Assembly (NCBI RefSeq): GCF_003334405.1
Contig: NZ_QOWM01000006.1
DNA: 64,000 nt
Reading direction: 5' to 3' (one strand)
Source: Escherichia coli
GTDB lineage: Bacteria; Pseudomonadota; Gammaproteobacteria; Enterobacterales; Enterobacteriaceae
Made by a program: the position numbers and the translations under genes. Below the pieces are notes generated by a model. The model was not told the DNA's origin and made no database searches. It saw only the letters and a list, made by a program, of their open reading frames with translations. Numbering within the stretch: the stretch's first letter is position 1; each line of letters opens with the position of its first letter. Positions 32,166 through 32,285 of this stretch are shown here, one piece after another.

Positions 32166-32285
32166 GCCTGGACGGATAAAGCGTTTACGCGACAACGGAT
32201 GCCCGATGCGACGCTGGCGCGTCTTATCGGGCCTACAAACGGCCCCGAATCGTAGGTCGGATAAGGCGTTCACGCCGCATCCGAC
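32166..32285. repeat. REP / BIME cluster (three REP units)
   Basis: Classic REP cores: GCCCGATGCGACGCTGGCGCGTCTTATCGGGCCTAC (32201-32236) and inverted copies at 32166-32201 and 32252-32285; between convergent fhuB and hemL. Confidence 0.8.

Follow-up and report, generated by a model that had tools for sequence, protein, structure and literature searches.

The gap between the convergent genes fhuB and hemL of Escherichia coli holds a cluster of palindromes, which raises the question of what kind of element this is and what it does for the two transcripts that run into it from opposite sides. In the window (the whole 64-kb stretch of DNA analyzed here), the open reading frame (ORF) list places fhuB at 30159-32141 on the plus strand, with its TAA stop at 32139-32141, and hemL at 32299-33579 on the minus strand, with its TGA stop at 32301-32299. 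Counted from the stop positions 32141 and 32299, the gap (32142-32298; 57% G+C) is exactly 157 bp, the size given in an earlier note on this DNA, and the convergence of the two genes reported there is upheld by both the ORF list and the RefSeq annotation. The 241 bases around the cluster are 100% identical to positions 173403-173643 of E. coli K-12 W3110 (K-12 coordinate = window position + 141303), and the gene names are taken from the RefSeq annotation of this identical K-12 DNA. In MG1655, that annotation lists fhuB (b0153) and hemL (b0154) as convergent genes and carries genes only over the cluster, without any repeat_region feature. Two further ORFs that overlap the gap, 32085-32411 (minus strand) and 32206-32394 (plus strand), were rejected as mechanical, since they cross the palindromes and lie antisense to hemL. 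Between hemL and clcA, RefSeq also places yadX, a gene of 15 codons (4549-4596 of locus record L001; K-12 175048-175095; approximately 33745-33792 of the window).

The gap contains three REP-derived units in alternating orientation: a decayed y-type unit (plus), a z2-type unit (minus), and a y-type unit (plus). Together they span 32162-32286, or 32153-32286 if the AACGGCCC flank is included, and therefore lie wholly inside the gap and fill 80 to 85% of it. The alternating arrangement and the occupation of most of the gap are as the earlier note described them; its limits of 32166-32285 identified the right region but fell a few bases inside the true ones. REP1 (32162-32199, plus strand, GTAG-first orientation) is 25/35 identical to the y consensus, carries GTAC in place of the GTAG foot, and in an alignment lacks 7 nt of the 3' arm relative to a second Escherichia locus (L015) whose copy retains the full stem. 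It forms no REP hairpin, and its fold is no better than that of shuffled sequence (z = +0.5). REP2 (32200-32236, minus strand; GTAGGCCCGATAAGACGCGCCAGCGTCGCATCGGGCA) is an intact 37-nt z2-type unit with 35/37 identity to z2, and folds into a 7+5 bp stem with an AA/GC 2x2 bulge and a 4-nt loop (ΔG = −23 kcal/mol, z = −5.5). REP3 (32252-32286, plus strand; GTAGGTCGGATAAGGCGTTCACGCCGCATCCGACA) is an intact 35-nt y-type unit with 33/35 identity to y and a 7+4 bp stem, again with an AA/GC 2x2 bulge and a 4-nt loop (ΔG = −19 kcal/mol, z = −4.8). Each of these two opens with GTAG on its own strand. The earlier count of three canonical REPs thus holds for REP2 and REP3 but not for the decayed REP1.

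REP1 and REP2 stand head to head with a 0-nt linker, whereas REP2 and REP3 stand tail to tail, separated by a 15-nt linker (AAACGGCCCCGAATC, 32237-32251) that runs from the CTAC of REP2 to the GTAG of REP3. The AACGGCCC motif lies 5' of both y units and gives the cluster an 85-bp period: the flank motif AACGGCCCT occurs first at 32153-32161, where it starts the 85-bp repeated unit, and again at 32238-32246. The resulting direct repeat (32153-32199 versus 32238-32284, spacing 85) has 70% identity. The gap folded as a whole gives z = −3.9 on the plus strand and z = −2.2 on the minus strand. On the hemL mRNA, 13 nt separate the stop codon (32299) from the REP3 stem (32285); on the fhuB side, the stop lies 20 nt from the decayed REP1 and 59 nt from the first intact stem. 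An 11-nt inverted repeat with 91% complementarity (32130-32140 and 32152-32162) links the last fhuB codons and stop with the AACGGCCC flank, and this pairing is seen in the predicted plus-strand fold.

Alignment to the REP consensus had been set beforehand as the test of the identification. In a scan of the 64-kb window, the z2 pattern matched 32201-32236 (plus strand) and the y pattern matched 32252-32285 (minus strand), each with 2 mismatches, whereas 100 dinucleotide shuffles of the window gave 0 matches to either pattern. The same scan detected no other REPs in the window. In each unit, the two mismatches are the two sides of one compensatory base pair: REP2 has C-G where the consensus has T-A, and REP3 has T-A where the consensus has C-G. 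The y and z2 patterns were modelled on the REP consensus of the literature, and independent support comes from recurrence elsewhere in the genome: at megablast sensitivity, the z2-linker-y stretch is found at 11 places in W3110, with a median of 9 per genome. REPs are defined by a GTAG foot, an AA/GC bulge, and lengths of 35 nt for y and 37 nt for z2 (PMC3333891, PMC8266576), and any alteration of the GTAG is too much for the TnpA-REP of E. coli (PMC8266576). REP2 and REP3 are therefore E. coli REPs (palindromic units): they have the foot, the bulged palindrome, and the consensus sequence, and they are extragenic and present in many copies.

The cluster combines y and z2 REPs with alternating REP/iREP orientation, the composition of a BIME-2-type cluster. 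Judged by sequence, it is of BIME-2 type, arranged as decayed y, z2, linker, and y within the 3' untranslated region shared by fhuB and hemL. It resembles the E. coli BIME-2 elements in the nomenclature of Gilson, Bachellier and Hofnung (Ton-Hoang et al. 2012, PMC3333891) in its GTAG foot and AA/GC-bulged imperfect palindromes of 35 and 37 nt, in the alternation of y and z2 with short linkers at an extragenic site between convergent genes, and in having many copies per genome with presence that varies among strains. It differs in that the tandem array extends to no more than about 1.5 units and in the decay of its outer y. BIME-2 elements carry a short S linker and s, l, or r flanking motifs; the linkers here measure 0 nt and 15 nt. 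Within the cluster, the only Rfam family to match was naRNA4 (RF02564), at 46.6, 37.7, and 32.2 bits, all below its gathering score of 59.5. That family represents REP325, a y/z2 BIME of the yjdMN operon proposed to act as an mRNA stabilizer and partly Rho-dependent attenuator; it shares the y+z2 hairpin pairs but has 12 hairpins rather than the 2 intact ones seen here and lies between tandem rather than convergent genes.

BIME-1, or RIP, also pairs a y REP with an inverted REP, but there the partner is z1 and the L linker carries an IHF site (PMC3333891). A BIME-1/RIP identity was considered for the fhuB-hemL cluster and rejected: the middle unit is z2 rather than z1, the L motif and long L linker are absent from the cluster, the linker that is present measures 15 nt, and the IHF consensus WATCAANNNNTTR, which has 3 matches in the window, has 0 in the gap. 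IHF binding, as the earlier note had proposed, accordingly finds no footing in a y+z2 cluster of this make-up. The assignment to the REP/BIME class made in that note is borne out, and the cluster is a known kind of element of which nothing departs from known REP/BIME biology.

To describe how the locus varies within the species, we counted gap alleles in 5,426 complete E. coli genomes, the figures being numbers of genomes without phylogenetic placement. The 157-bp BIME allele was found in 1,701 (31%; coverage of at least 80%) and a 34-bp allele (TTGAATGCCTCGCCCGGTGGGCGAGGCAAAATCA) in 3,704 (68%), while approximately 21 genomes fitted neither. Carriers of the short allele include LF82 (positions 343-376 of locus record L002), an ST131 strain, NGF1, and an O55:H7 strain. 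It has nothing in common with the BIME and holds a 10-bp GC stem whose fold scores z = −4.3 and −5.2; scans of this allele found no U tract, terminator, or promoter. In a one-genome-per-species collection, the BIME allele was also present in an E. coli-labelled record (L015) and in two Escherichia sp. loci (L057 and L079), and both gap alleles are probably old. An alignment of five BIME alleles from diverged Escherichia lineages showed invariant stems in REP2 and REP3; the variable sites fall in the loops, in the CTAC of REP2, in the 15-nt linker (approximately 7 of 15 sites), and in REP1. The invariant stems fit constraint on the hairpins, in a sample of five sequences in which homogenization among REP copies could produce the same pattern.

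The same gap was then compared across the Enterobacteriaceae, with one genome per species. A pattern scan located the fhuB end in 83 loci, 79 of which have hemL in convergent orientation with a gap of 33 to 221 bp whose content changes by genus. Citrobacter, Salmonella, Klebsiella, Kosakonia, and others carry paired GTAG-footed hairpins, each of its own flavor; Enterobacter and Leclercia carry other short repeats and T-tailed hairpins; and at some loci the gap contains just one short hairpin. Three Citrobacter loci (L007, L022, and L062) have a 36-bp gap (TGTAAACGCCTCGCC...GGCGAGGCGAATGGA) with a stem (GCCTCGCC...GGCGAGGC) that resembles the 34-bp E. coli allele, a likeness that hints that the short hairpin allele may be ancestral or may have been exchanged between genera. 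The T-tailed hairpin of Enterobacter and Leclercia (AAACGGCAA...TTGCCGTTTT) occurs in 12 loci (L005, L031, L035, L039, L043, L053, L063, L069, L074, L081, L082, and L085). In the same 12, a CCCTCTCCC-N-GGGAGAGGG palindrome is joined to GGGGTGAGGGCATCAGGCCGCAC and belongs to a different short-repeat family, which we take to be boxC-like; it is duplicated in L074.

These comparisons bear directly on whether the cluster has a selected function at all. It may instead be a selfish or neutral trace of REP/BIME proliferation, tolerated where any stable hairpin suffices. The dimorphism itself, the ongoing decay of REP1, and the finding that across the 79 convergent loci the gap holds repeats particular to each genus or just a short hairpin all point in this direction, as does the ability of TnpA-REP to cleave and recombine BIMEs in vitro (PMC3333891). 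Since a plain 10-bp GC hairpin takes its place in most E. coli strains, the cluster is not essential, and the 68% of genomes without it, together with the decaying REP1, suggest weak selection on the cluster as a whole. Against an entirely neutral residue, however, diverged Escherichia lineages have identical stems in REP2 and REP3 but differ in the linker, and both deviations from consensus are compensatory pairs. Moreover, at least one strong hairpin is kept in every allele of every genus, so that a hairpin function seems to be required. We regard a wholly unselected cluster as possible but on the unlikely side.

To determine how transcription ends around the cluster, we combined scans of the sequence with published RNA data. 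A scan of 31800-32700 found no hairpin-plus-U-tract terminator on either strand, and no sigma-70-like promoter was found in the gap region. Adams et al. (2021) report two Rho termination regions here, both called in 800-nt windows so that their positions are coarse. One lies on the plus strand at K-12 173376 (window 32073; Rho score = 3.8, p = 3.5e-5), 68 nt short of the fhuB stop. The other lies on the minus strand at K-12 173016 (window 31713; Rho score = 8.6, p = 1.7e-22), and this peak in the bicyclomycin data is 586 nt past the hemL stop, antisense to fhuB and approximately 430 nt beyond the cluster. Transcription from hemL therefore evidently passes through the cluster and invades fhuB in the antisense direction for more than 400 nt until Rho halts it. 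RNA made beyond the cluster has a C:G ratio of 1.45 to 1.6 on the hemL strand and 1.2 to 1.4 on the fhuB strand, a C-rich composition such as would be expected of Rho loading sites.

The curated Term-seq data of Adams et al. (2021), which cover three growth conditions, contain no 3' end at K-12 173,445-173,601; repeat mapping and low fhu expression could be causes. On the minus strand, a putative 76-nt RNA, AC0173, is listed at 32246-32321 (NC_000913:173,549-173,624) in Table S1 of the RepRanger paper (PMC12306157). It is an RNA-seq prediction for which we found no Northern blot confirmation. AC0173 starts 20 nt ahead of the hemL stop codon, runs through that codon, the 13-nt spacer, and the REP3 hairpin with its CTAC, and extends 6 nt farther, and the shape of this putative RNA is that of a REP-protected 3' fragment of hemL. 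Dar and Sorek (2018, PMC6061677) showed that PNPase and RNase II trim Rho-terminated mRNAs back to ends just past stable stem-loops that lack a U tract, some of them REPs. The fhuB-hemL cluster resembles such sites in having a stable stem-loop just 3' of a gene with Rho-dependent read-through beyond it, and the 34-bp E. coli allele looks like a plain non-REP version of the same; it differs in that the published Term-seq tables examined hold no 3' end at this locus.

The reading that best accommodates these data, to which we assign a probability of roughly 60%, is that the REP hairpins block 3' exonucleases on Rho-terminated fhuB and hemL transcripts. The family and anatomy of the cluster, its two very stable hairpins, and its lack of an intrinsic terminator are direct observations. 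In the mechanism we propose, transcription from either gene would pass through the cluster, and Rho would stop RNA polymerase farther downstream, in C-rich RNA antisense to the opposite gene. Exonucleases acting 3' to 5' would then shorten the tail until they met a REP hairpin, so that the hairpins would set the steady-state 3' ends and guard the coding parts, REP3 doing so for hemL and REP3 with REP2 for fhuB. The cluster itself would have been laid down by REP/BIME proliferation, a process ascribed to the TnpA-REP transposase. The role of 3' end stabilizer suggested in the earlier note is thus the best-supported function, through evidence of an indirect kind: stable hairpins on both strands, a putative AC0173 that ends 6 nt past REP3, and the analogy with Term-seq ends elsewhere. 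In a 2026 preprint, REP325 acts as a stabilizer and partly Rho-dependent attenuator, and REPs between convergent genes are associated with higher expression of both genes; the legend of its Fig. 4G-H states that, genome-wide, mRNA half-lives are not longer for REP-carrying genes. Protection could be accompanied by partial attenuation, by gyrase binding, and by an effect on hemL translation, none of which it excludes.

The earlier note had also offered the cluster as a terminator. In this explanation, the REP hairpins would themselves stop polymerase arriving from fhuB and from hemL, preventing collisions and antisense transcription, as their position between convergent genes invites one to suppose. 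Espeli et al. (2001, as cited in PMC6061677) reported that transcription is attenuated by BIMEs, the attenuation by REP325 is partly Rho dependent, and 78 REPs fall within published bidirectional terminators (both from the 2026 preprint). A cluster that terminates by itself is nevertheless at odds with the missing U tract on both strands and with a hemL-strand Rho peak so far beyond the stop codon, which implies that much transcription crosses the cluster; read-through on the fhuB strand is likewise Rho dependent. We therefore consider termination by the hairpins themselves unlikely and retain exonuclease protection as the preferred reading.

A role at the level of DNA would make the cluster a BIME-2 gyrase site that relaxes positive supercoils between the converging transcription units, with IHF uninvolved. 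Gyrase cleavage sites are overrepresented in BIME-2 elements, y-type REPs are preferred, and blocking transcription does not abolish the signal (PMC6379681), and the y+z2 composition of the cluster agrees with this; gyrase binding, which the earlier note had also suggested, is thus plausible by class alone. Cleavage is confined to a subset of BIME-2 elements, however, and the loci named as having multiple cleavage sites are sucC-sucB and tldD-yhdP (PMC6379681). The Topo-Seq supplements have no entry for fhuB or hemL. The cluster has just two intact REPs, and most E. coli strains do without it. On this balance, supercoil relaxation as the function of the cluster seems doubtful.

Less probable still is a translational brake on hemL, in which REP3 would stall the terminating ribosome, the mRNA would be cleaved, HemL output would be lowered, and tmRNA would rescue the ribosome. 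REPs that regulate translation lie less than 16 nt downstream of the stop codon (Liang, Rudd and Deutscher 2015, as summarized in PMC12306157), a limit within which the 13 nt between hemL and REP3 fall, and the 5' end of the putative AC0173, approximately 20 nt upstream of the hemL stop, would, speculatively, agree with a cut beside a stalled ribosome. The brake does not apply to fhuB, whose stop is too far from both REP1 (20 nt) and the first intact stem (59 nt) for the rule to hold.

That the two gap alleles form a maintained regulatory polymorphism rather than a product of drift is very improbable; if it were so, the BIME allele, with a REP 13 nt past the hemL stop, could alter the output of HemL (haem precursor) or the stability of the fhu (iron uptake) message relative to the hairpin allele.

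REP/BIME elements have been described for some four decades, and the present cluster sits in the E. coli K-12 reference genome, so that its discovery value is small. Its one notable feature is the allele dimorphism, which provides a natural test case in which the same gene pair is followed either by a BIME or by a plain hairpin. A single allele swap could probe three debated functions of REPs, namely the protection of mRNA, attenuation linked to Rho, and the stalling of ribosomes close to a stop codon. Elsewhere in the window, the Rfam search returned three plus-strand matches above their gathering thresholds: the HtrA 5'UTR thermometer at 39541-39586 (77 bits), t44 RNA at 48457-48543 (83.5 bits), and CssrA at 49382-49491 (136 bits).
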